From Thermoplasmata archaeon (lineage in GTDB: Archaea > Thermoplasmatota > Thermoplasmata > RBG-16-68-12 > JAJISG01), in the NCBI GenBank assembly GCA_046758325.1, contig JBHHZZ010000004.1:18035-82034 (forward strand): a stretch of 64,000 bases of DNA, in the 5' to 3' direction. The translations under genes and the position numbers were made by a program. The stretch's first letter is position 1; each line of letters begins with the position of its first letter. The notes below the pieces were generated by a model that did no database searches, was not told the origin of the DNA, and saw only the letters and a list, made by a program, of their open reading frames with translations. Of this stretch, positions 9,376 to 22,298 are shown piece after piece.

Positions 9376-9918
9376 TCAACGCCTTACGAACTGCTTGGCG
9401 ATATTCCTGAATGCCTGTCGCACGTTCTCACCAGTTTTCGCACTCGTGATCTTGTAGGGACAGGAATGGGTCTTGGCAAAGGCAGCCACATCCTGCTCTC
9501 GAACCTGCATTTGGTCCTGCAGATCGACCTTGTTTCCCACGATGACTACGGGAATTCGCCCCGTGATTCTGAGGACGGTGGAGAGCGAGGTGTGTAGGTC
9601 GTCAAGGGTGTCGGGCCGCGTCAGATCGCACACCGCCAGGACCCCCTGCGCCCCCTCGAAATAGGCCTCCTTCAGGAGCTCGCGGAAGCCCTTCTCCCCC
9701 ATGATGTCCCATATCGTCATGTCTAGCCGGGCCGGCTTCTTACCCTTAATCTCGACCTCCGTCTTGGTTATCTTCGCGCCTATGGTTGCGAAGTATCGGT
9801 CCTCGAAGGTGTTGTGGACGTAACGGTTGACCAGACTGGTCTTCCCCACCGCGGACTCCCCCACGAGGCAGACCTTCATTTTCAAAACCTTCGTTTGTGG
9901 AGGGCTGAGAACGGCCAT
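9376..9918 (-). CDS. Rab/Ras-like small GTPase (paralog 2)
   Basis: GESAVGKT, YFATIG, WDIMGE, NKVD, TSAKTG; ATG 9918. Confidence 0.92.
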   Translation of the reverse strand: MAVLSPPQTKVLKMKVCLVGESAVGKTSLVNRYVHNTFEDRYFATIGAKITKTEVEIKGKKPARLDMTIWDIMGEKGFRELLKEAYFEGAQGVLAVCDLTRPDTLDDLHTSLSTVLRITGRIPVVIVGNKVDLQDQMQVREQDVAAFAKTHSCPYKITSAKTGENVRQAFRNIAKQFVRR

Positions 9919-9985
9919 CGGACTCCACTTGAGGACTCTGGGAAATAACTCTTCCCACGACCGTATCACTAATGATTCTCTAGTT

Positions 9986-10549
9986 TTAGTCCTCCTCTGA
10001 AGTGACCTGGGTGAGCCGTTCGGCGACGATACGCCTGGCAAGGCTCGTGAAGGCGTCCTCCACGTTCTCCCCCGTCTTGGCGCTGGTAAAGTGCCAAGGC
10101 GAGTCGTAGGCTTTGGAGAACTGCTCCACCTCTCCTTCCCCAATATCCATCTTGTCCTTGAGGTCAACCTTGTTGGCAAAAATCTCTATGGGGATTCGAC
10201 CGGTGACGCTGTAGACGCCCTCGATCCAATCGTCTAGGTCGTCCAAGGTGTTCCTCCTGGTGACGTCGCACACTGCGATGATGCCCTTGGCACCGTAGAA
10301 GTAGGCCTCCTTCAGGAGCTCGCGAAAGCCCTTCTGACCCATGATGTCCCAGACGGTCATGTCGACCCTTATCCTCCCATCCTCAGGGGGCAAGTCGACG
10401 ACGGTCTCCTTCTTGGAGACCTTTGTCCCGAGGGTCTGAATGTACTTGTCATCGAAGTCGTCGTGGACAAACCGGCGGATGAGGCTCGTCTTTCCGACGG
10501 CCGCCTCCCCTACGAGGCACACCTTCATCTTCATTCTCTTGGCTTCCAT
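9986..10549 (-). CDS. Rab/Ras-like small GTPase (paralog 1)
   Basis: GEAAVGKT, YIQTLG, WDIMGQ, NKVD, TSAKTG; alternative start 10558. Confidence 0.92.
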   Translation of the reverse strand: MEAKRMKMKVCLVGEAAVGKTSLIRRFVHDDFDDKYIQTLGTKVSKKETVVDLPPEDGRIRVDMTVWDIMGQKGFRELLKEAYFYGAKGIIAVCDVTRRNTLDDLDDWIEGVYSVTGRIPIEIFANKVDLKDKMDIGEGEVEQFSKAYDSPWHFTSAKTGENVEDAFTSLARRIVAERLTQVTSEED

Positions 10550-10578
10550 GAGCCTCATTTTCCAACGTCGTCGAACCG

Positions 10579-10830: not shown

Positions 10831-11832
10831 ATGCCTAAGACACGCAAGCCCAGACATGGCTCCATGGCTTACTCGCCCCGCAAGAGGGCCAGGAAAGAGG
10901 TCCCTCACTTCACCTCCTGGCCCGAGATTAGCGACGGCCCTAAGCTCCAATCCTTCGCTGGATACAAGGCCGGGATGACCCATGTCCTCATGACGGACTT
11001 CAACCCCAACACCACCACTGCAGGCCAGGAGATTCAGGTGCCCGTAACCGTCGTGGAGGTCCCTCCCATGCGAGGGGCGGCTGTTCGTCTCTATCGGGAG
11101 AGCCCCGAGGGCCTGAAGGCGTATGGGGAGGTATGGGAGGCGCGCCTGGACAGGGAGCTGGCGGCCAGGTTGCCTCTTCCCAAGGGATACGATCCGGAAA
11201 AGGTCTGGCGTCGGTTTGACGCTGAGAAGGTCGACGAGGTAAGGGTCCTCACATACACCCAGCCGAAACTGGTGAAGGGCATTCCCAAGAAGGTGCCAGA
11301 CCTGATGGAGACGAGAATCGGTGGAGGGACCATCGAGGACAGGATCGAGTACGCCAAGGGTATCCTGGGTAAGGAGGTCACCGTGCGGAACTTTGCAGGG
11401 GAGGGTCAGCTGGTGGATGTGGCAGCCGTCACGAAGGGGAAGGGCTTTCAGGGCGCCGTCAAGCGGTGGGGCATAAAGATCCTGAGCCACAAGGACAGCA
11501 AGATCAGGCGCAGGGTCGGGACTCTAGGTACCTTCAAGCCCGGATACACGCGGCCCACCGTACCCCAGGCAGGTCAGATGGGGTACCACCAGAGGACGGA
11601 GTTCAACAAGCTCATCTTGAGGATAGGGGATGATGGGTCAGAGATAACGCCCCAGGGAGGTTTCCTGAGGTACGGGGAGGTGAGGAACACCTATCTCCTA
11701 ATCAAGGGCTCCATACCGGGGCCGTGCAAGCGGCTCGTGAGGTTCCGTGATCCCATGAGGGCGGATAGGGCGAAGATGGTAGAACAGCCAGATCTTACCT
11801 ACGTCTCCCTCACGTCGAGGCAAGGTGCGTAA
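10831..11832 (+). CDS. rpl3: 50S ribosomal protein uL3
   Basis: PRHGSMAYSPRKRA, GYKAGMTH, TKGKGFQGAVKRWG, GQMGYHQRTE. Confidence 0.98.
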   Translation: MPKTRKPRHGSMAYSPRKRARKEVPHFTSWPEISDGPKLQSFAGYKAGMTHVLMTDFNPNTTTAGQEIQVPVTVVEVPPMRGAAVRLYRESPEGLKAYGEVWEARLDRELAARLPLPKGYDPEKVWRRFDAEKVDEVRVLTYTQPKLVKGIPKKVPDLMETRIGGGTIEDRIEYAKGILGKEVTVRNFAGEGQLVDVAAVTKGKGFQGAVKRWGIKILSHKDSKIRRRVGTLGTFKPGYTRPTVPQAGQMGYHQRTEFNKLILRIGDDGSEITPQGGFLRYGEVRNTYLLIKGSIPGPCKRLVRFRDPMRADRAKMVEQPDLTYVSLTSRQGA

Positions 11833-11833
11833 C

Positions 11834-12817
11834 GTGGTAGAAAAGCCCGAGGACAAGGAGGAGATGCCTCAGATCAAGCCGAAGGACGTAAGGAGGGCTA
11901 GGAAAGCCCAGCTACAGGAGTGGTGCGAGGCCTTCGGCCTGGACTCCTCGGGCAAAGTGGATGACCTCAGGAAGCGGCTCATAGCCTTCCTGGAGTCGGA
12001 GGAGTACCTGCTCCTGGAAGAGGAGGAGGCCCCCGAGCTGCCAGAGCGGGAAGAGGGCCAGGCATACCTCTACTCCATGGAGGGCAAGATCCTCCACGTT
12101 CTCGACCTTCCTCGGGTCTTCAGGTCAGATGTGCGGACTGACCTCATCAAGCGAGCCGTGGATGCCTTTCGCGCCAACAGGAGGCAGCCCTATGGCCCCG
12201 GCCCCGCCGCGGGGTTGAGGCACTCGGTCTCCTGGTGGGGGAAGGGCCGGGGCGTCTCGAGGGTTCCGAGGCTCAAGGACAGCCGCCGGGCCGCCCAGGC
12301 TCCCGGGACTGTTGGCGGCAGGAGGGCCCATCCCCCCCGTCCGGAGCGTGACTGGAGCAAGAAGCTGAACAGGAAGGAGAGGAGGCTAGCTCGAGCCGCC
12401 GCCCTGGCGGCCACAGCGGATACCACTCTCGTCACGCAACGGGGTCACCGATTCCGGGGAGACCTCTCCCTCCCGGTGGTTCTGGAGGCCAAGGTGGAGG
12501 GGCTGGAGAGCACAAAGGAGGCGGTGGACGTATTGCAGAGGCTCGGCCTCAGCGAGGATGTGGAGAGGTCCGCCAGAAAGAAGGTCAGGGCCGGCAGGGG
12601 GAAGATGAGGGGTCGTCGGTATCGCAGGAAGAAGGGCCCTCTGGTGGTCCTCTCCAACGGCTGCCCAGGGGGCAGGGCCTTCGGGAACCTCCCAGGGGTG
12701 GATGTGGTGGACCCCTCGGGCCTCAATGCTGAGGTCCTCGCCCCCGGCGGAGTCCCTGGGAGGCTTACTATCATTAGCGAGAAGGCCCTTGAGGAGCTTA
12801 GGAGTTGGTCGTCATGA
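11834..12817 (+). CDS. rpl4: 50S ribosomal protein uL4 with N-terminal SAP-like extension
   Basis: WGKGRGVSRVPR, PGTVGGRRAHPP, LAPGGVPGRL; start GTG 11834 or ATG 11864. Confidence 0.96.
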   Translation: MVEKPEDKEEMPQIKPKDVRRARKAQLQEWCEAFGLDSSGKVDDLRKRLIAFLESEEYLLLEEEEAPELPEREEGQAYLYSMEGKILHVLDLPRVFRSDVRTDLIKRAVDAFRANRRQPYGPGPAAGLRHSVSWWGKGRGVSRVPRLKDSRRAAQAPGTVGGRRAHPPRPERDWSKKLNRKERRLARAAALAATADTTLVTQRGHRFRGDLSLPVVLEAKVEGLESTKEAVDVLQRLGLSEDVERSARKKVRAGRGKMRGRRYRRKKGPLVVLSNGCPGGRAFGNLPGVDVVDPSGLNAEVLAPGGVPGRLTIISEKALEELRSWSS

Positions 12818-13098
12818 TAGACCCCCACGAAATCCTCCTGTACCCGGTGGTGACAGAGAAGTCCCTCAACCTTCTCTCTGGCACCGCTGCCCAGAACTTC
12901 AGGGATGGCAACAAGCTAGAGTTCGTCGTGAAGAGGGATGCCACCGCGACAGACATAAGGGAAGCCTTCGAGAAGCTCTTCGAGGCCAAAGTAGAAAAGG
13001 TAAACACCCATATCAAGAGAGACGGAAAGCATGCGATCATCAAGCTCAAGGAGGACTACTCGGCCGAGGAAATCGGGATGCGGATAGGGATCTTCTAG
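12814..13098 (+). CDS. rpl23: 50S ribosomal protein uL23
   Basis: PVVTEKS, NKLEFVV, KVEKVNT, KHAIIKL. Confidence 0.96.
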   Translation: MIDPHEILLYPVVTEKSLNLLSGTAAQNFRDGNKLEFVVKRDATATDIREAFEKLFEAKVEKVNTHIKRDGKHAIIKLKEDYSAEEIGMRIGIF

Positions 13099-13106
13099 GC
13101 GATGCC

Positions 13107-13802
13107 ATGGGCAAGAACATCATATCTCAGAGGAGAGGAAAGGGGTCGTCGACCTTCAGATCCCCCAGCCACAGGCATCTGGGCCCTGTGACCTTCCCGC
13201 CCATCGAGCAGGCCAGGGGCGTGGTGCAAGAGATCCTTCACGCTCCTGGGAGGTCTGCACCCCTGGCCCGGGTCAGGTTCGAGGGGGGCGAGTTCCTCAT
13301 GATAGCTCCTGACGGGATGTACGTGGGCCAGGAGGTTTCCATCGGTCCCGGCAGTATAGAGAGGGGCAACGTGATGGAAATCGGGAAGATGCCTGAGGGA
13401 ACCCTCATCTATAACATCGAGGCGAAGCCAGGCGATGGAGGTAAACTCTGCAGGGCCGCCGGCTCCTCTGGAGTGATCATCACCCAGGGAGAGCGGACGG
13501 TGGTCCAGATACCCTCGGGGGAGTTCAAGCCCCTGAACCCCAAGTGCAGGGCCCAGATAGGGGTCGTGGCCGGCTCGGGGCACAAGGATAAGCCTTACGC
13601 CAAGGCCGGCAAGAAGATAATGGCGCTGGCCAGCAAGTCCAAGGAGCCCTTCAAGGTACGGGGCGTGGCCATGAACGCCGTCAGCCATCCCCACGGTGGT
13701 GGGGGCCACCAGCACGTGGGCAGGCCCAGCACAGTCTCCCGTAACGCTCCACCAGGCAGGAAAGTAGGTAGGCTTTCGCCCAAGAGAAAGAAGAGGAAGT
13801 GA
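13107..13802 (+). CDS. rpl2: 50S ribosomal protein uL2
   Basis: [37 protein letters not shown]. Confidence 0.98.
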
Positions 13803-14266
13803 TAGAGGTGCCTAAGAAGGGTGGATCGGCCAAGGCCGCGAGGCGGCGGGCGAGGAAGAGGGCGGGTGCAGCTGAGGCCCGGAGGAAGAGGGAGTTTGCA
13901 TATCGAGGATTCTCCTTGGAGGAGCTCCAAGCCATGAGCCTTGAGGAACTTCTACGCCTTATGCCCTCCCGGGTGAGGAGAACCTACTCCCGAGGGCTCT
14001 CCGAGGAGCATCGGATCGTCGTGGAGAAGCTTCGGAGGTCGGAGAGTAAGGTTGTGAGGACCCACCGGCGAGACATCCCAATATTGCCCTACTTCGTGGG
14101 CAAGAAAGTGTCGGTCCACAATGGAAGGGGGTTCGTGACCTTTGAGATCAAGCCGGAGATGATCGGCCACTACCTGGGAGAGTTCGCGTTGACCCGCAAG
14201 CCCGTGGAGCACTCGGGTCCTGGGGTCGGAGCGACGAGGTCCTCCAAGTTCCTACCCCTGAAGTAG
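13799..14266 (+). CDS. rps19: 30S ribosomal protein uS19
   Basis: [38 protein letters not shown]. Confidence 0.97.
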
Positions 14267-14275
14267 AGGTGAGAA

Positions 14276-14719
14276 ATGGGCTACTCCATGCAGGTGGACG
14301 AGGAGACGACGGCGAAGGCCTACGGCAAGGAGCTGCCGATCTCTCCCAAAAAGGCCCGGGAGGTGTGCCGGGCCATACGCAGGAAGCCCATTGCAGAGGC
14401 AAAGGAAATTCTTGAGGGCATCATCGAGGGGCGGAGGGCAATCCACTATGCGAGATACAGCAAGGAGGTGGCCCACAAGCCCGGCCTAGGTTCGGGAGGT
14501 TATCCCGTAAAAGTGGCCAAGTACATCCTGAGGTTGCTGGAGAACGCGGAGGAGAACGCAGAGTACAAGGGACTGGATTCCGAGAGTATGGTGGTCCACC
14601 ACATTTCCGCCTATAGGGGAAGCCCGACGAAGTCCTACAGGCCCAGGGCCTACGGGAGGAGTGCCCCCTGGGTGAAGGAAGCCACCAACGTGGAGGTCAT
14701 CCTCAGGGAGGTCGAGTAG
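14276..14719 (+). CDS. rpl22: 50S ribosomal protein uL22
   Basis: ISPKKAREVC, YPVK, NAEENAEYKGLD, PRAYGR. Confidence 0.97.
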   Translation: MGYSMQVDEETTAKAYGKELPISPKKAREVCRAIRRKPIAEAKEILEGIIEGRRAIHYARYSKEVAHKPGLGSGGYPVKVAKYILRLLENAEENAEYKGLDSESMVVHHISAYRGSPTKSYRPRAYGRSAPWVKEATNVEVILREVE

Positions 14720-15606
14720 TGGCGGGAGAGAGGAAGATAGTGGCCGACAATCTCAAGAGGGTCCTCCTGAAGGAGTACATGATGAAGGAGACGGAGAGGG
14801 CGGGCTTCGGCGGTCTGGATATCCAGAGGACTCCCATGGGCACGCGCATCACCCTCTTCGCCGAGAGGCCAGGCATCGTGATAGGAAGGCGAGGGGCGAG
14901 CATCAAGGAGTTGACGCTCGCCATCGACCGGAACTTCGAGCTGGACAACCCTCAGATAGAGGTGGAGGAGGTAGAGAATCCGGCCCTCAACGCCCAGATC
15001 ATGGCCGAGAAGCTCTCCAGCGCCCTGGAGAGGGGATGGCACTTCCGCCGGGCAGGCCATTCGACCCTACGGCGCATTATGGAGTCCGGGGCCAAGGGCG
15101 CTCTGATAAAGATTTCGGGAAAGCTGACGAGCCAGAGGCACCGCACGCAGAAGTTCAAGGCAGGCCACATAAAGTACTGCGGTGAACCGAAGAACCTGTT
15201 CGTCGGGGTGGGCTTCGCCACGGCCAAGCTGAAGCAGGGTGTCATAGGCGTCACGGTCTGGATCACGGATCCCAATGCCAAGCTGCCGGATGAGATCGAG
15301 GTCATGGCCCCCGTGAAGGTGGAGGAGGCCCCTGTCGCTGAGGCGAAGGCCGAGGCGGGGGAGGCCATGGTAGAAGCTGCCAAGGTCCTCAAGAGAGTGA
15401 AGAAGGTTACGGAACAGAAGCCCTTAGGCCCGGCGGAGAAGAAGCTCAAGAGGCTGAAGAGGGTCGTGGAGGAGCTGGGGGAAGAGGTAGAGCTGGTCCC
15501 CGACGAGGAGGCCGAGGTTGAGGAACCTGATGAGGATCTCGAGCCTGAAGAAGAGGAAGCATCCGATCAGGAGGAAGAGGAGGCATCTGATCAGGAGGAG
15601 AAGTAG
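14719..15606 (+). CDS. rps3: 30S ribosomal protein uS3 with long acidic C-terminal tail
   Basis: RPGIVIGRRG KH motif, ERGWHFRRAG, GKL..QR, GVIGV. Confidence 0.97.
   Translation: MAGERKIVADNLKRVLLKEYMMKETERAGFGGLDIQRTPMGTRITLFAERPGIVIGRRGASIKELTLAIDRNFELDNPQIEVEEVENPALNAQIMAEKLSSALERGWHFRRAGHSTLRRIMESGAKGALIKISGKLTSQRHRTQKFKAGHIKYCGEPKNLFVGVGFATAKLKQGVIGVTVWITDPNAKLPDEIEVMAPVKVEEAPVAEAKAEAGEAMVEAAKVLKRVKKVTEQKPLGPAEKKLKRLKRVVEELGEEVELVPDEEAEVEEPDEDLEPEEEEASDQEEEEASDQEEK
15547..15594 (+). repeat. Two imperfect 24-nt tandem units encoding EEEEASDQ in the uS3 tail
   Basis: gaagaagaggaagcatccgatcag / gaggaagaggaggcatctgatcag. Confidence 0.8.
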
Positions 15607-15607
15607 G

Positions 15608-15859
15608 ATGGCCTTGCTGAAGGTACAGGAGATCAAGGAGATGAATCCCGAAGAGAGGCTGTCCAAGTTGAAGGAGCTCCGGGATGAGCTGATGTACGAG
15701 CGGGGTGTGGCAGCCATGGGTGGCGCCCCTCCCAGCCCGGGCAAGATGAGGGCCCTCAGAAAGAACATCTCGAGGATACTCACGGTCCTCTCTGAAGAGA
15801 GAAAACTGGAAGGAGTGAAGGACGCCGTGAAGCAAGGCATCCAGGAGGAAACGGGCTAG
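15608..15859 (+). CDS. rpl29: 50S ribosomal protein uL29
   Basis: EIKEMNPEER..KLKELRDEL, GGAPPSPGKMRALRKNISRILT. Confidence 0.95.
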   Translation: MALLKVQEIKEMNPEERLSKLKELRDELMYERGVAAMGGAPPSPGKMRALRKNISRILTVLSEERKLEGVKDAVKQGIQEETG

Positions 15860-16156
15860 ATGGCGATCTGCTCAACCTGCGGGCTTCCCGAGGAGCTCTG
15901 CATCTGCGAGGAGATCGCCAAGGAGACACAGCGGATAAGAATAACGAGTGACAGGCGACGGTACGGGAAGGTGGTGACTATTGTCGAGGGTCTCGACGCC
16001 AGCGATGTCGATCTGGAGGAACTGGCCAGGACCCTCAAGACAAAGGTCGCCGCTGGAGGGACCGTCAAGAACGGCAGAATCGAACTGCAGGGAGAGCACA
16101 GGAAGAAGGTTGAACAGACCCTTAGGGAGCTGGGCTACAACGTTGAGGTCAGGTGA
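15860..16156 (+). CDS. Translation initiation factor aIF1 (SUI1 homolog)
   Basis: [14 protein letters not shown] Zn knuckle, [20 protein letters not shown]. Confidence 0.96.
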
Positions 16157-16157
16157 T

Positions 16158-16427
16158 GTAACTAGGAGTCGCAGGAAGTACTTGGCAAAGCACGAGCTGA
16201 TAGGCTTGGAGGTTCAAGTGGCGGACGCCACGGATCCAAGCCACCGCGGCATTCAAGGCCGCGTGGTGGACGAGACCCGCAACACCCTGGTCCTAGAGGG
16301 TTCCGGCGGGGAAATTATCCTTCCAAAGAAGGGGTCAGTGTTCCTCTTCCGCCTAGACGAGGATGTGCTTATCGAGGGAAACCGGCTGCTCCACAGGCCC
16401 ATGGACAGGGTGAAGAAAGCGAGGTGA
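16158..16427 (+). CDS. rnp1: Ribonuclease P protein component 1 (Rpp29/Pop4)
   Basis: HELIGLEV, G.QGRVVDETRNT, PKKGSVF, G..L.HRP.DR; start uncertain (first canonical codon is TTG 16182). Confidence 0.9.
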   Translation, partial: VTRSRRKYLAKHELIGLEVQVADATDPSHRGIQGRVVDETRNTLVLEGSGGEIILPKKGSVFLFRLDEDVLIEGNRLLHRPMDRVKKAR

Positions 16428-16431
16428 TGAA

Positions 16432-16764
16432 ACGGTTCGAAAGGCGAGGGACATAGGGCTTGGCGTGCCCCCACCGTCCAAGGAGTGTGACGATCAGAAA
16501 TGTCCCTTTCACGGCCATCTCAGGGTTCGCGGCCAGCTTCTGGAGGGCAAGATTGTGTCCGACAGGATGCAGCGGACCGTGACCGTCCAGAGGAACTATC
16601 AGAGGCTCATCCCGAAGTACGAGAGGTTCGAGAAGAGGAGATCGAAGTACAAGGCCCACGTCCCTCCATGCATGAATGTAAAGCTCGGGGACCAGGTTCT
16701 CATCGGAGAGTGCAGGCCCCTGGGCAAGACGGTCTCCTTCGTGGTGGTCGCTAAGAGGGGGTGA
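16432..16764 (+). CDS. rps17: 30S ribosomal protein uS17 (probable ACG start)
   Basis: [37 protein letters not shown]; conserved RDIGL lies upstream of the first canonical codon (GTG 16465). Confidence 0.95.
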
Positions 16765-16768
16765 TGGG

Positions 16769-17167
16769 TTGAAGGGACTCCCGGGAAGACAGACAAGGGG
16801 CCTCCCCACGGGGGCGAGACTCGTATGCATCGACAACACTGGGGCCAAGCAGGTAGAGATCATAGCGGTTCTAGGATACAAAGGCGTCAGGAGGAGGTAT
16901 CCGAGCGCCGCCCTGGGGGATATCGTCGTGGGGAGTGTGAAGAAGGGTAGCCCCGAGATGAGAAAACAGATCGTGAACGCCGTCATAGTGAGGCAGAGGA
17001 GACCCTTCCGGCGACCTGACGGCCTCGTCGTCCAGTTCGAGGACAACGCCTGCGTAATAACCACGGAGACGGGGGAGGCCAAGGGGTCGGACATCAAGGG
17101 ACCCGTAGCGCGAGAGGCAGCCGAGCGGTGGCCCAGAATAGCCGCGACGGCCTCCATGATCGTCTAG
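16769..17167 (+). CDS. rpl14: 50S ribosomal protein uL14
   Basis: [33 protein letters not shown]. Confidence 0.98.
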
Positions 17168-17175
17168 GTGATGGA

Positions 17176-17553
17176 ATGGCGAAGAGCAGGAAGCCGCGAA
17201 AGCAGAGGAAGCGGGCATACGAGAGCCCCCACCATAGGCGGGGTAGGCTTCTATCGGCCCACCTGAGCCCCAAGTACCTGGAGGACACCAAGGTCCGCTA
17301 TCCCAGGTCCCTCCCCATACGGGAGGGGGATACCGTGGTCGTGATGAGAGGCTCCCAAAAGGGGCACGAGGGTAAGGTCGCCCGGGTGGACCACAGGGGG
17401 ATTCGGGTATACGTCGAGGGTGTGACCACCACAAAGGCCGACGGGACCGAGGTTGGCAAGCCCATCCACCCCTCCAACCTGATGATAACCAAGCTCGACA
17501 TGACGGACCCTTGGAGGAGGAAACTCATCGAAAGGGCCGGGGGTGAATCATGA
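17176..17553 (+). CDS. rpl24: 50S ribosomal protein uL24
   Basis: PRKQRK, GDTVVVMRG KOW motif, IHPSNLMITKL. Confidence 0.97.
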   Translation: MAKSRKPRKQRKRAYESPHHRRGRLLSAHLSPKYLEDTKVRYPRSLPIREGDTVVVMRGSQKGHEGKVARVDHRGIRVYVEGVTTTKADGTEVGKPIHPSNLMITKLDMTDPWRRKLIERAGGES

Positions 17554-18266
17554 CGAGGTTGAAGAGGCTGGCCGCACCGAGGGCCTGGAGCATACCGAGG
17601 AAGGGACTCAAATGGGTCGTCAGGCCATCCCCAGGACCCCATCCCCTGCATCGCTGCATTCCCCTCCTGATAGTCCTCCGGGACATGCTTCGCTACTGTG
17701 ACAACGCCAGGGAGGCCAAGGGGGTCATCCGCTCCAAGAAGGTCTTGGTGGATAACCGCCCCGTGAGGGACCCAGGCTTTGCCGTGGGCCTTATGGACAC
17801 TGTCTCCCTCCCAGATGCGGGGGAGCACTACCGGGTCCTCCTGGACACCCGGGGCAGGTTCCGCCTGGTTCCCCTCACAGAGAAGGATGCCCAGTGGAAG
17901 CTGGCCAGGATAGAGAACAAGACCGTCGTCAGGGGGGGCCGAATACAGCTGAACCTCTCCGACGGGAGGAACATGCTTGTGGAGGAGGCCCACAGTACGA
18001 AGGATACGCTGAAGGTGGCCCTCCCGAATCAAGAGATCATGGATGTCCTCACCCTCAAGAAGGGCAGCGTGGCCCTCCTGACGGGGGGCAAACACGTGGG
18101 CCAGCTGGGTCGTGTGGAGGAGGTGGTGTTGGAGCGAAGTTCCAGGCCAAATGTGGTAAAGTTTAAGGAGGGTTTCTCCACTGTTTTGGATTACGTATTC
18201 ATCGTGGGGAAGCAGAAGCCCCTGATTGCGCTCCCTGAGAGCGTGGCTACGCGAGTGGTCCCATGA
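17550..18266 (+). CDS. rps4e: 30S ribosomal protein eS4
   Basis: LKRLAAPRAW, PSPGPH, GLMD, QLNLSDGRN, GGKHVG. Confidence 0.97.
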   Translation: MTRLKRLAAPRAWSIPRKGLKWVVRPSPGPHPLHRCIPLLIVLRDMLRYCDNAREAKGVIRSKKVLVDNRPVRDPGFAVGLMDTVSLPDAGEHYRVLLDTRGRFRLVPLTEKDAQWKLARIENKTVVRGGRIQLNLSDGRNMLVEEAHSTKDTLKVALPNQEIMDVLTLKKGSVALLTGGKHVGQLGRVEEVVLERSSRPNVVKFKEGFSTVLDYVFIVGKQKPLIALPESVATRVVP

Positions 18267-18769
18267 ATTCAATGCGGCAGATCAGAATCGAAAAGGTGGT
18301 CGTCAATATCGGCGTAGGCGAGGCAGGAGACAAGCTGCTGAAGGCCCAGAAGGTACTGGAAATGCTCGCTGGCCAGCGTGCCATTCAGACCCTTTCCAAG
18401 AAGACCAACAGGGACTGGGGCATCAGGAAGGGCATGCCCATCGGCACCAAGGTCACGCTGAGGGGTGAGAGCGCGGAGAAGTTCCTCCGAGAGGCTCTGT
18501 GGGCTAGGAACAACGTGCTGAATGGCTACAACTTCGACCCCGAGGGCAACTTCTCCTTCGGGATTGTGGACTATACGGATTTCAAGGGGATGAAGTACGA
18601 CCCCGAGATAGGCCTCTTCGGCATGGACGTGAACGTCGTCCTCCAGAGGGCCGGGTACAGAATCGCCAGGAGGCGCATCAAGAGAAACAGGGTGCCCCGG
18701 AGACATCGGGTGAACAAGGAAGAGGCGATCAGCTTCGTGAAGGACAGATTCCAGGTCGAGGTGCGGTGA
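18263..18769 (+). CDS. rpl5: 50S ribosomal protein uL5
   Basis: [39 protein letters not shown]. Confidence 0.97.
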
Positions 18770-18924
18770 CGGCTGTGGTGAGTACCCGGAAGCAGTTCGG
18801 CAGAAAGAGGGGATGCCAGCGGTGCGGCAGGAGGCGGGGGATCGTCCGCCGGTACGGCCTTCACCTCTGTCGCCAGTGCTTCCGCGAAATGGCCTTCGAA
18901 CTCGGCTTCAGGAAGTACTCCTAG
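18766..18924 (+). CDS. rps14: 30S ribosomal protein uS14 (Zn-binding type)
   Basis: Manual translation ..[45 protein letters not shown]; absent from the ORF track (<60 aa); start GTG 18766 or 18775. Confidence 0.96.
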
Positions 18925-18932
18925 GTGGTTTT

Positions 18933-19322
18933 GTGAGACACGATCCCCTTAACGATGCCCTCGGCACGGTGAAAAACGCGGAGGCAAGCGGCAAGGCCGC
19001 TTGCATGATAAAACCCGCGTCCAAGCTGATAGGCCGCGTCTTGAAGGTGATGCAGGACTACGACTACATCGGCGGCTTTGAGTTCAAGGAGGATGGGAGG
19101 GGAGGCTACTTTGAGGTTAGGCTGAAGGGAAACGTGAACGACTGCGGGGTAATCAAGCCCCGGCTCTCTGTCAGGAGGATGGATCTGGAGAAGTACGAAT
19201 CTAGATACCTGCCGGCCCAGGACTTCGGCGTCCTGATCCTGACGACCACCAACGGAGTCCTCTCCCACTCTCAGGCCAAGGAGCAGGGGGTCGGGGGCCG
19301 CCTCTTGGCATACGTGTACTGA
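18933..19322 (+). CDS. rps8: 30S ribosomal protein uS8
   Basis: [40 protein letters not shown]. Confidence 0.97.
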
Positions 19323-19331
19323 GGTGATGAT

Positions 19332-19874
19332 ATGGTGGTCACCGGCATTGCTGAAGAGGCGGTGGAGATTCCGGAGGGCGTGGAGATTCAGCTCGTGGGT
19401 GACGATGTCATCGTTCGACGAGGGGACACGGTCCTCTCCAAGAGGCTCTCCCACCCGCGGGTGCAGTTAAGGCTGGAGGGGTCCACAGTGCGCGTGGAGT
19501 GCCCGCTGCCCAGGAAGAGGGAGAAGGCCCTAGTGGGCACCTATGCCTCCCACATCAGGAACATGATCAAAGGGGTCACAGAGGGCTTCACCTACACGAT
19601 GAAGGTGGTTTATGCCCACTTCCCCGTGAAGGTGACTGTAAGGGGCGATGAGGTGGTCGTCGAGAACTTCTTGGGGGAGAGACATCCGAGAACAGCAAGG
19701 ATAAGAGGAAGCACGAAGGTCGAGGTCAAGGGAGACACCCTACGCATAAGCGGTCCTGGCCTGGAGGAAGTGAGCCAGACCGCCGCCAACATCGAACAGG
19801 CTACGCGTATCAAGAACAAGGATCCCAGGGTCTTCCAGGACGGCATATACGTAGTGAGCAAGGGTGGGGCATAG
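19332..19874 (+). CDS. rpl6: 50S ribosomal protein uL6
   Basis: HIRNMIKGVTEGF, YAHFP, NFLGE, KDPRVFQDGIY. Confidence 0.97.
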   Translation: MVVTGIAEEAVEIPEGVEIQLVGDDVIVRRGDTVLSKRLSHPRVQLRLEGSTVRVECPLPRKREKALVGTYASHIRNMIKGVTEGFTYTMKVVYAHFPVKVTVRGDEVVVENFLGERHPRTARIRGSTKVEVKGDTLRISGPGLEEVSQTAANIEQATRIKNKDPRVFQDGIYVVSKGGA

Positions 19875-20501
19875 ATGCCAGAGGAAGGAGACGCTTTCCC
19901 GACGAGGACGGAGGTCAGACGGGCCAGGAAGACAGAGCTCCAAGAGTGGTGCCGGGAGTTCGACCTGGACGACTCAGGCATCGTGGTGGAGTTGAGGGAG
20001 AGACTCCTCGACTTCCTGGAGTCCCTGGAAGAGGAAGAGGCGGAGCTTGAGGAGGAGATAGAGGTCGTAGAGGAGGCCGAGGAAGAGGTCTACATGGTCA
20101 GACAGAAGCCGGTCCTCGCGCCCGAGGCGACCCAGCTCCTCGCCCTCAGGGCGCGGCTACAGAAGAGGAGGCCCAACTTCCGCCGCCAGGAGTGGTTTCG
20201 GTACCACAAGCTGGGGGAGAAGTGGAGGAGGCCAAGAGGGAGACACTCGAAGCTTCGGCGGCACCTTAAGTACAGGAGCTCCTTGCCTTCCGTGGGTTAC
20301 CGGGGGCCTAGAGAGACGCGAGGCCTGCACCCGTCGGGCTTCAGGGAGGTTCTGGTCCACAAGCCAGAAGACCTGGAGGGTCTGGACTCGAAGACCCAGG
20401 CCGCCCGCATAGGCCATGCCGTGGGTACGAGGAAGCGCATCTCCATCCAAGATAGGGCCGATGAGCTTGGGATAAGAATCCTCAACAGGGTGGTGGAGTG
20501 A
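19875..20501 (+). CDS. rpl32e: 50S ribosomal protein eL32 with N-terminal SAP-like extension
   Basis: FRRQEW, WRRPRG.HSK, GYRGP, RGLHPSGF, IGHAVG. Confidence 0.96.
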   Translation: MPEEGDAFPTRTEVRRARKTELQEWCREFDLDDSGIVVELRERLLDFLESLEEEEAELEEEIEVVEEAEEEVYMVRQKPVLAPEATQLLALRARLQKRRPNFRRQEWFRYHKLGEKWRRPRGRHSKLRRHLKYRSSLPSVGYRGPRETRGLHPSGFREVLVHKPEDLEGLDSKTQAARIGHAVGTRKRISIQDRADELGIRILNRVVE

Positions 20502-20953: not shown

Positions 20954-21453
20954 TGTCCAAAGGTCCTCGATACCGGGCGCCCTTCCGGAGACGCCGGGAA
21001 GGAAGAACCGACTACAGGAAGAGGCTGGGCCTCCTGAGGAGTGGCAGGCCCAGGGCTGTCGTTAGGAAGACCCTCTCCAACACCATCGTGCAGTTTGTCA
21101 TCTACACCCCCGAGGGAGATCGGATCGTGACCTCAGCCGTCTCCAAGGAGCTGGAGCGCTATGCCTGGAAAGTTCCGAGGGGAAGCGTGCCCGCTGCCTA
21201 TCTCACGGGATACCTAGCGGGCAAGCGGGCCCTGGAGGCGGGGCTGAAGGAGGCCGTCCTGGATATAGGCCTGCACCCTCCCACACGCGGAGGCCGTGTG
21301 TTTGCCGCCCTGAAGGGAGTCCTCGACGCGGGAATTCAGGTACCCCATGATGACGACATCCTCCCGGAGGAAGCGAGGATAAGGGGCGACCACATCTCCA
21401 AGGACGTGGTGAAACTCTTCGGTGAGGTCAAGGCGAAGTTGGAGGCCCTCTGA
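20953..21453 (+). CDS. rpl18: 50S ribosomal protein uL18
   Basis: GPRYRAPFRRRREGRTDY, PAAYLTG, VLDIGL. Confidence 0.97.
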   Translation: MSKGPRYRAPFRRRREGRTDYRKRLGLLRSGRPRAVVRKTLSNTIVQFVIYTPEGDRIVTSAVSKELERYAWKVPRGSVPAAYLTGYLAGKRALEAGLKEAVLDIGLHPPTRGGRVFAALKGVLDAGIQVPHDDDILPEEARIRGDHISKDVVKLFGEVKAKLEAL

Positions 21454-22298
21454 TGAAGGTCGTTGAGGAATGGATTCCAAAGACAGCCCTGGGCAAGTTG
21501 GTCGTGAGGGGCGAGGTGAGGACCATGGCTCAGGCCCTCAGGACGGGCCTACCCATTCGTGAACCCGAGATCGTGGACATACTGCTCCCAGAGCTGGATG
21601 ACGAGGTTCTGGACGTGAACATGGTTCAGAGAATGACAGACTCTGGCAGGAGAATCAACTTCGTCATCACAGTTGTAGTGGGCAATGGTGATGGCTACGT
21701 CGGCCTTGGAATGGTCCGCGGAAAGGAGGTGGGACCCGCCATCAGGAAAGCCATCGACAACGCCAAACTCAACATCATCGAGATCAAGAGGGGCTGCGGT
21801 TCATGGGAATGCGGTTGCTTCAGCCCCCACACGCTGCCCTTCAAGGTGTTGGGCAAGAGTGGTTCCGTGGAGGTCACCCTCAAGCCGGCACCCAGGGGCG
21901 TTGGTCTGGCGGTGGCCGACGTGGCAAAGAGTGTGATCAGGCTTTCCGGGGTCGAGGATGTCTGGGGTTTCGCCAAGGGTCACACGAAGACCACTGTAAA
22001 CTATGCCTATGCGACCTTCGATGCCCTAAGGAGAACGATGGAGTTCAAGATCACTGAGGAGCAGGCAGAGAACCTCCACATATTCTATGGCCCGGCGGAG
22101 CCTTACGAGGTTGACTTCTCGGCCTTGACTGAGCCAGAGCCCTCCGTGGAAGCGACTGTCGAGGCCGAGGAACGAGAAGAGGCACCGGAGGAAGGCAAGG
22201 CAGAGGCAGGCGAGGGCGAAGAGGCGGTGGAGAAGAGCAAGGAAGGGGCAAGCAAGGGTGAGGAGGCAGCGGAGAAGAAGAAAGGGGAGGAGGAATGA
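21453..22298 (+). CDS. rps5: 30S ribosomal protein uS5 with acidic C-terminal tail
   Basis: WIPKTALG, VQRMTDSGRR, RGCGSWECGC, PAPRGVGL. Confidence 0.97.
   Translation: MKVVEEWIPKTALGKLVVRGEVRTMAQALRTGLPIREPEIVDILLPELDDEVLDVNMVQRMTDSGRRINFVITVVVGNGDGYVGLGMVRGKEVGPAIRKAIDNAKLNIIEIKRGCGSWECGCFSPHTLPFKVLGKSGSVEVTLKPAPRGVGLAVADVAKSVIRLSGVEDVWGFAKGHTKTTVNYAYATFDALRRTMEFKITEEQAENLHIFYGPAEPYEVDFSALTEPEPSVEATVEAEEREEAPEEGKAEAGEGEEAVEKSKEGASKGEEAAEKKKGEEE

Follow-up and report, generated by a model that had tools for sequence, protein, structure and literature searches.

SAP domains occur in eukaryotic proteins such as SAF-A, PIAS, Ku70, DEK, SARNP/Hcc-1/Tho1 and ERI1/3'hExo, which share one Pfam family and a helix-extended loop-helix fold, and in which the domain is a small module flexibly linked at one end of the protein. 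Here we describe modules of the same family and fold, with the same L..L...GL..sG....L..RL pattern and likewise terminal, fused to the N-termini of two large-subunit ribosomal proteins, uL4 and eL32, encoded in a 64,000-nucleotide stretch of a Thermoplasmata archaeon genome (GenBank assembly GCA_046758325.1, contig JBHHZZ010000004.1, positions 18,035 to 82,034 of the forward strand; hereafter the window). They differ from their eukaryotic counterparts in that the carrier is an archaeal core ribosomal protein, a poly-Glu linker lies before or after the module, the eL32 copy is net acidic and binding is predicted only. The case is one of domain accretion on ribosomal proteins by a known module; to our knowledge ribosomal proteins rarely gain whole folded domains, and added interest lies in the hopping of this SAP among three proteins and in the interchangeability of modules at eL32. 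The fusions are real, and we propose that the SAP was copied from one ribosomal protein to another and that it serves as a tethered, low-specificity binder of nucleic acid; we consider the chances that this account holds as a whole to be evenly balanced.

Among described ribosomes, the Haloarcula 50S subunit offers a likeness at the same position. The eL32 chains of this halophile in the PDB are 234-241 amino acids long versus 125-130 in other archaea, and in some depositions of that ribosome the eL32 chain is no longer than 142-143 amino acids; this spread suggests an extension of about 95 residues at the same position that is missing from some models. The halophile extension would be of helix-hairpin-helix (HhH) type and not SAP; the HhH extension of a Thermoplasmata eL32, used alone as the query, missed those chains. 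We know of no uL4 or uS5 counterpart in halophiles. The Rho N-terminal domain and LEM/HeH share the helix-extended-helix superfold with SAP; Rho chains came low in our Foldseek list. Automatic Pfam labels already tag some of the proteins described here as SAP + L4 or SAP + L32e. We found no paper describing SAP fusions to uL4 or eL32 in the literature search listings, and the excerpts of PMC9932298 and PMC4598080 contain no position or appendage data for eL32.

According to the ORF (open reading frame) list, the large archaeal cluster of ribosomal-protein genes lies on the + strand of the window, and the two extended genes within it are laid out as follows.

11825..12817, + strand: N-terminally extended uL4 gene, 330 amino acids from the GTG at 11825, with a Ribosomal_L4 match
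uL4 residues 1-21: leader
11888..11998, + strand: uL4 SAP module, residues 22-58; Pfam SAP match, AlphaFold helix-loop-helix with a predicted local distance difference test score (pLDDT) of about 85-92
11999..12076, + strand: uL4 acidic linker, residues 59-84; 10 Asp + Glu versus 1 Lys + Arg, net charge -9
12077..12814, + strand: uL4 canonical core, residues 85-330; Pfam Ribosomal_L4 at residues 95-326
19875..20501, + strand: N-terminally extended eL32 gene, 208 amino acids; its ATG lies immediately 3' of the stop of ORF 19332-19874
eL32 residues 1-13: leader
19914..20024, + strand: eL32 SAP module, residues 14-50; match to an order-specific hidden Markov model (HMM), sub-cut-off match to Pfam SAP
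20025..20156, + strand: eL32 Glu-rich linker, residues 51-94; 15 Asp + Glu versus 4 Lys + Arg, net charge -11
20157..20498, + strand: eL32 canonical core, residues 95-208; Pfam Ribosomal_L32e at residues 100-204

A second GTG at 11834 gives a 327-residue form of uL4 that equals the database protein P0003; the two GTGs straddle (11825) or come one base past (11834) the stop of the upstream ORF, which from gene order we take to be uL3. The ORF that precedes eL32 (19332-19874) is presumably uL6, judged from gene order and not by a Pfam scan. Both cores are essentially complete: the match to Ribosomal_L4 (PF00573; 135.3 bits) spans positions 3-188 of a 190-position profile, that to Ribosomal_L32e (PF01655; 140.4 bits) positions 2-108 of 108, and archaeal eL32 chains of 125-130 amino acids in the PDB align with the matching core in a relative. 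Net charge runs from +2 (SAP) through -9 (linker) to +27 (core) in uL4, and from -3 through -11 to +18 in eL32. Two stretches of the uL4 linker, EEYL..EEE and LP.R..GQ.YLY, are kept among orthologues.

The 37-residue modules of the two proteins are identical at 25 columns, and BLASTP of the first 80 residues of uL4 against those of eL32 gave 25/48 identities (E = 3e-14, for a single comparison). By Pfam, the uL4 module scores above the SAP (PF02037) gathering score of 23.9 bits in every form searched: 24.5 bits in the whole protein, 27.5 in isolation and 25.7 as a 59-residue segment. The eL32 module scored 80.7 bits against an HMM built from this order's modules. We aligned 42 modules from the window's own genome (G000) and related genomes for profile searches and scans; 34 of these match Pfam SAP at E ≤ 0.01, seven columns (A11, K13, L16, L25, G29, L34 and R37) are invariant, and a PDB search with the resulting profile reached the SAP structures of Hcc-1 (E 1.1e-4) and DEK (7.4e-4). 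AlphaFold, run on the module alignment, predicted helices at residues 5-10, 13-22 and 31-53 with an extended loop at 23-30, at pLDDT 82-92 over the first 40 residues. Compared with known structures in Foldseek, this model had SAP-containing chains at ranks 1-10 and 12, with template modelling (TM) scores of 0.57-0.81 and root mean square deviations of 0.8-1.6, led by ERI1/3'hExo (TM 0.81), DEK, Hcc-1 and E1B-AP5, with PIAS1, Tho1 and Ku70 lower; none reached E ≤ 0.001. The related families did less well: HeH (PF12949) reached 12.3 bits (E 0.15, cut-off 28.9) with the uL4 segment and gave no match with that of eL32, it was found at E ≤ 0.01 in only 1 of the 42 modules, and the Pfam scan reported no Rho_N match for either segment. 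SAP fits the module better than HeH/LEM or Rho_N. We assign the modules on uL4 and eL32 to the SAP domains, an identification on which Pfam, the PDB profile search and the neighbours of the AlphaFold model agree.

When uL4 was modelled as a whole, pLDDT was about 85 in the SAP (residues 19-59) and under 50 at residues 60-68; the core was again predicted confidently, except for its known long internal loop. This fits a SAP held as a separate bead on a short flexible tether. Much of what the first-pass annotation of this DNA had read from the letters alone thus stands: the two 37-residue strings it quoted are the exact translations of 11888-11998 and 19914-20024 and their 25/37 identity was recounted; Glu-rich linkers (10 and 15 acidic residues) do precede normal cores with Pfam L4 and L32e matches; its SAP/HeH-type assignment is borne out by the PDB profile matches, by the AlphaFold and Foldseek neighbours and, for uL4 only, by a Pfam score over the cut-off; and its flexible tethering agrees with a uL4 model in which a low-confidence linker at residues 60-68 separates a confident SAP from a confident core.

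The extensions are translated and under purifying selection, and as conserved as the cores. The uL4 SAP is 57-97% identical to those of 18 orthologues, versus 60-85% for the core. Between the window's genome and one relative (G001), 39 of 46 SAP residues are identical in uL4 and the same codon is used in 26 of those 39; identical residues with differing codons argue that selection acts on the protein. At each canonical core start the window has a Met, but uL4 orthologues have Thr, Leu or Val at this position and eL32 orthologues have Glu, Gln or Arg, making a conserved internal start unlikely. Whole-protein searches of the window's own genome, which is 95.9% complete, returned one uL4 core and one eL32 core, and no second copy free of the SAP.

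We surveyed uL4 and eL32 in 41 genomes of the order to which the window's genome belongs, 14 from its own family (f1) and 27 from six other families. SAP-uL4 is present in 14/14 genomes of f1, in one of which a contig end truncates it, and in 0/27 of the others, in which the uL4 alignment begins only at about residue 42-99. Two uL4-specific peptide patterns searched across 185,579 species found 14 loci, labelled as Thermoplasmata, Thermoplasmatota, Methanobacteriota or 'Methanomassiliicoccales' metagenome-assembled genomes. SAP-eL32 has a far wider range: it occurs in 39 of the 41 genomes, comprising all 14 of f1 and 25 of the 27 others. These 25 gave a single alignment in 18 genomes and two alignments within one frame in seven, the split arising because the linker is longer; in 16 genomes outside f1 the custom HMM also recognised the SAP within the eL32 frame. 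The two exceptions are G031, with a Lys/Ala/Pro-rich extension, and G033, in which only a 105-amino-acid frame was found.

Beyond the order, a class-wide search for eL32 covered 151 genomes, 148 of which gave a match, and we read 20 loci from other orders; one of the 151 (G129) is unpublished and underlies none of the specific claims made here. One of the 20 has a SAP at eL32, in a frame that is interrupted; the remaining 19 carry other extensions, either HhH-type or rich in Lys/Glu, in acidic repeats or in Lys/Ala/Pro. HhH-type eL32 extensions occur in four families; one of four scanned reaches HHH_5 (41 bits against a cut-off of 27) and the other labels were given by eye. Several Thermoplasmata families have plain eL32 frames of 134-153 amino acids. 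Other Thermoplasmata thus have a different module, HhH or a Lys/Ala/Pro tail, at the site of the SAP, in the same order of module, acidic stretch and core, and an acidic run precedes the core in every eL32 extension that we read. Within the order itself, in G031 (L036), a long Lys/Ala/Pro-rich tail stands at eL32 where the SAP would be, and the uL4 proteins of families f5 and f7 (L033, L035, L036, L093, L094) have Lys/Ala/Pro-rich N-terminal tails of 25-90 residues and no SAP. Long uL4 alignments in two f5 genomes (G203, G196) had been candidates for further SAP-uL4 fusions; they proved to be such tails, in which the custom HMM found no SAP.

We also searched the SAP profile against a global library of 1.84 billion representative proteins, which yielded 625 matches at E ≤ 0.001. 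A Pfam scan of 103 of the best 150, those of up to 450 amino acids (47 longer proteins were excluded), found eight eL32 proteins, one divergent SAP-uL4 (P0048), one protein with the ribosome silencing factor RsfS and one artefactual uS8 chimera, the rest being multi-SAP proteins, zinc-ribbon proteins and nucleases. The apparent uS8-SAP fusion (P0036) is a gene-call artefact, made up of a uS8 start, an out-of-frame stretch and an eL32 N-terminus.

Other carriers of related SAPs came to light in these searches. In the window's own genome, a 365-amino-acid protein on contig C5 (L005:904-2001, - strand) has several zinc ribbons and an internal SAP of the ribosomal subtype (65 bits to the custom profile); an acidic stretch follows, then one more zinc ribbon, and the C-terminus is hydrophobic. 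Matching frames of congeners are 341-372 amino acids long. A 493-amino-acid protein on contig C28 (L001:1438-2919, + strand) has an N-terminal SAP of 24.0 bits, just over the Pfam cut-off, a long helical-looking region and a C-terminal CxxC...CxxC end that is zinc-ribbon-like. In the representative library, P0148 (332 amino acids) has a SAP of this subtype at residues 99-145, a poly-Glu stretch and RsfS at residues 190-282; it looks eukaryotic and organelle-targeted, and is another ribosome-binding protein with a SAP and an acidic linker. Among relatives, P0020 (359 amino acids), P0026 (400 amino acids) and the frame G007:C58:4282-5133 each contain two SAPs of the same subtype with a long acidic region between them, and no other Pfam family at E ≤ 1e-5.

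A third copy of the module lies on a small-subunit protein. In a congener (G002) and in two database proteins (P0010, P0012), a SAP stands at the C-terminus of uS5, past its acidic tail; the corresponding gene of the window ends without one.

21453..22298, + strand: uS5 gene with Pfam S5 domains only; acidic C-terminal tail from about 22098, no SAP

This tail of the window's uS5 is about 65 residues long (22098-22295). In two NCBI genomes the SAP of uS5 is nearly identical to that of uL4 (P0018/P0010, both on contigs of 66225 bases, and P0009/P0012, both on contigs of 64141 bases). Substitutions of a genome's own uL4 SAP recur in its uS5 copy, and the positions at which the two genomes differ are shared by both proteins; the tree joins the uS5 and uL4 copies of one genome as a pair in both cases (support 98/82 and 82/83). 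The residues past the module are common to both uS5 proteins, unlike uL4. The simplest reading would be that the SAP entered uS5 once and was then converted by the uL4 copy, which lies about 10 kb upstream; independent copying on two very recent occasions is a possible alternative. The only metagenome contig found with a near-identical uS5-SAP ends before uL4, so that conversion between uL4 and uS5 is argued from protein sequences only.

The uL4 and eL32 modules have a different relationship. Within a genome, their SAPs are identical at 17-26 of 46 residues, about half of which share a codon (for example 14/26), and a 10 x 10 identity matrix shows the uL4 SAP to be no closer to the eL32 SAP of its own genome than to those of others. 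On these figures we reject recent gene conversion between uL4 and eL32, and the lack of a same-genome excess, together with the differing codons, suggests that their likeness is kept by selection on the protein. The two are old, long-diverged paralogues. In a 50-column tree the uL4 and uS5 modules fall within the radiation of the order's eL32-type SAPs. SAP-eL32 would then be the older form, present throughout this order of uncultured Thermoplasmata; an eL32-type SAP would have been copied onto uL4 in one family, f1, and in some members of f1 the uL4 SAP copied on to the C-terminus of uS5. Ribosomes of different lineages would accordingly bear one, two or three SAP modules. The duplication that the first-pass annotation had suggested is supported by the nesting of the uL4 copies among eL32-type SAPs, and its statement that uL4 elsewhere lacks such a module holds for the order, where none of the 27 genomes outside f1 carries SAP-uL4. 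Its 'concerted maintenance' of the uL4 and eL32 copies has to be given up, same-genome pairs being no closer; concerted evolution is seen instead between the uL4 and uS5 copies. The order-wide SAP-eL32 and the alternative appendages at the eL32 site had been overlooked.

What might these modules do? Our best guess is low-specificity nucleic-acid binding, predicted because of the activities of solved SAPs, the swaps for HhH modules and basic tails at eL32, and the fusions of SAPs to DNA enzymes. The PDB titles of the structural neighbours speak of scaffold/matrix attachment region (S/MAR) DNA, the nucleosome and a histone mRNA stem-loop, and elsewhere the fusion partners of relatives of this SAP subfamily include nucleases (Mrr, HhH-GPD and Exo_endo_phos) as well as RsfS. 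The SAP modules would be flexibly tethered, low-specificity binders of structured nucleic acid, either duplex DNA or RNA, on the ribosome surface. There they might anchor the ribosome, or the protein before its assembly, to DNA, mRNA or nascent rRNA, with the acidic linker keeping the SAP away from the ribosome's own rRNA. If the ligand is DNA or nascent RNA, the fusions bear on the spatial coupling of transcription, ribosome assembly and translation in archaea. One small module would have been copied among three ribosomal proteins of both subunits within one gene cluster, its latest copy (on uS5) apparently still evolving in step with its uL4 source. Three unrelated types of nucleic-acid-associated module at one eL32 site in neighbouring lineages suggest a selected, undescribed surface function, and a counterpart is perhaps testable in genetically tractable halophiles, whose eL32 is extended at the same position.

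A bolder version, which we think unlikely, holds that the N-terminus of eL32, and in f1 also uL4 and uS5, is a docking site for interchangeable DNA-binding modules (SAP, HhH and histone-H1-like Lys/Ala/Pro tails) by which ribosomes would be physically anchored to the nucleoid or to the template under transcription. If true, this would be a lineage-wide, protein-encoded coupling of ribosomes to DNA in euryarchaea, overlooked because the appendage is disordered in solved structures.

An expansion segment of rRNA was considered as a ligand in cis and rejected: the 23S excess is one 717-nt insertion, and 23S length, which ranges over 2911-3645 nt among relatives, is independent of SAP-uL4, G009 having SAP-uL4 together with a 2924-nt 23S. 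The 23S rRNA of the window's own genome is 3645 nt long (contig C35:9743-13387, minus strand). Its 717-nt insertion (L096:2455-3171), defined against a relative's 2924-nt gene, contains, on the rRNA strand, an ORF of 197 amino acids that we read from its GFVDGEG motif as a LAGLIDADG homing endonuclease; the insertion looks like an rRNA intron.

Several results weigh against the proposal that these are copied SAP modules that bind nucleic acid with low specificity. Towards Pfam SAP the eL32 module reached 21.4 and 21.1 bits, below the cut-off, and towards SAP_new25 it reached 21.5-24.5 bits, under that family's 26.3; the Foldseek search of the module model gave zero matches at E ≤ 0.001, its E-values being weak because the domain is short. 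As to the copy history, the tree puts the uL4 copies beside the eL32 SAPs of f4, f5 and f7 and not beside those of f1, and 21 of its 46 inner branches, drawn from 50 columns, are unresolved; with this placement and resolution, the donor of the uL4 SAP is not settled. The library protein P0048, whose closest match among 79 genomes of the order is 56% identical, may be an independent SAP-uL4 fusion from outside those sampled genomes. As to function, the appendages are acidic overall, which is unfavourable to simple electrostatic binding of nucleic acid, and the ligand may be either DNA or RNA.

The net acidic charge fits equally well with a built-in chaperone or charge shield, in which the acidic extension folds onto the basic core before assembly, so that the protein stays soluble and away from wrong RNAs while free, much as dedicated chaperones act for eukaryotic uL4, and has little role in the finished ribosome. 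The eL32 extension, with a net charge of about -17, offsets its core at +18, the uL4 extension has about -8 against +27, and all types of eL32 appendage end in an acidic stretch adjoining the core; there is precedent in eukaryotic uL4, which, in the excerpt of PMC4598080, requires the chaperone Acl4. A shield would not, however, require a folded SAP conserved as well as the core, sister lineages have strongly basic Lys/Ala/Pro tails at the same place, and the AlphaFold model of uL4 shows no docking of the extension on the core, a weak point as it comes with no pairwise error map. We regard a shield as unlikely but worth keeping in view.

Alternatively, the SAPs may be protein-protein adaptors that bring a partner to the surface of the ribosome or bind one another, candidates for the partner being an assembly or hibernation factor or a membrane-anchored zinc-ribbon protein with the same SAP subtype. 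Indeed, the sole other member of the SAP subfamily in the genome is the 365-residue zinc-ribbon protein, whose hydrophobic C-terminus is, by eye, probably membrane-spanning; the eL32 SAP is net acidic, the PIAS1 SAP structure (1v66) is titled a p53-binding domain, and one relative of the subfamily is fused to RsfS. The partner remains a candidate only, however, and the alternative modules at the eL32 site (HhH and basic tails) suggest nucleic acid over one shared protein partner, making an adaptor role, in our view, quite improbable.

We give still less weight to autoregulation, in which the SAP would help uL4 or eL32 to bind the mRNA of its own operon and repress its translation at times of surplus free protein. 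The uL4 of E. coli acts as an autoregulator, and the SAP of ERI1/3'hExo, the top structural neighbour, was solved in complex with an RNA stem-loop. The SAP is found on three proteins and at either end, however, and non-specific modules replace it in sister lineages, which fits poorly with recognition of one specific leader; we consider this role very unlikely. Finally, an annotation artefact, by which GC-rich DNA happens to leave the upstream frame open while the canonical core is the true start of translation, could appeal to the long chance frames that are common here (stop-to-stop frames of 400-600 amino acids surround uL4 in other families) and to the Met at each core start in the window, but is scarcely credible and already contradicted by the conservation data: the SAP is conserved as protein amid many synonymous changes. 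It also matches a family model built independently, orthologues lack the internal Met, and each start codon directly adjoins the preceding gene's stop.

Among the remaining features of the window, uS3 (14719-15606) has a C-terminal extension of about 90 residues with a strongly acidic repeat at its end, and acidic tails seem to be a general trait of ribosomal proteins in this organism. Two neighbouring ORFs on the - strand (9376-10179 and 9986-10558), immediately upstream of the ribosomal genes, have a GxxxVGKTS P-loop and resemble, by eye, small Ras/Rab-like GTPases.

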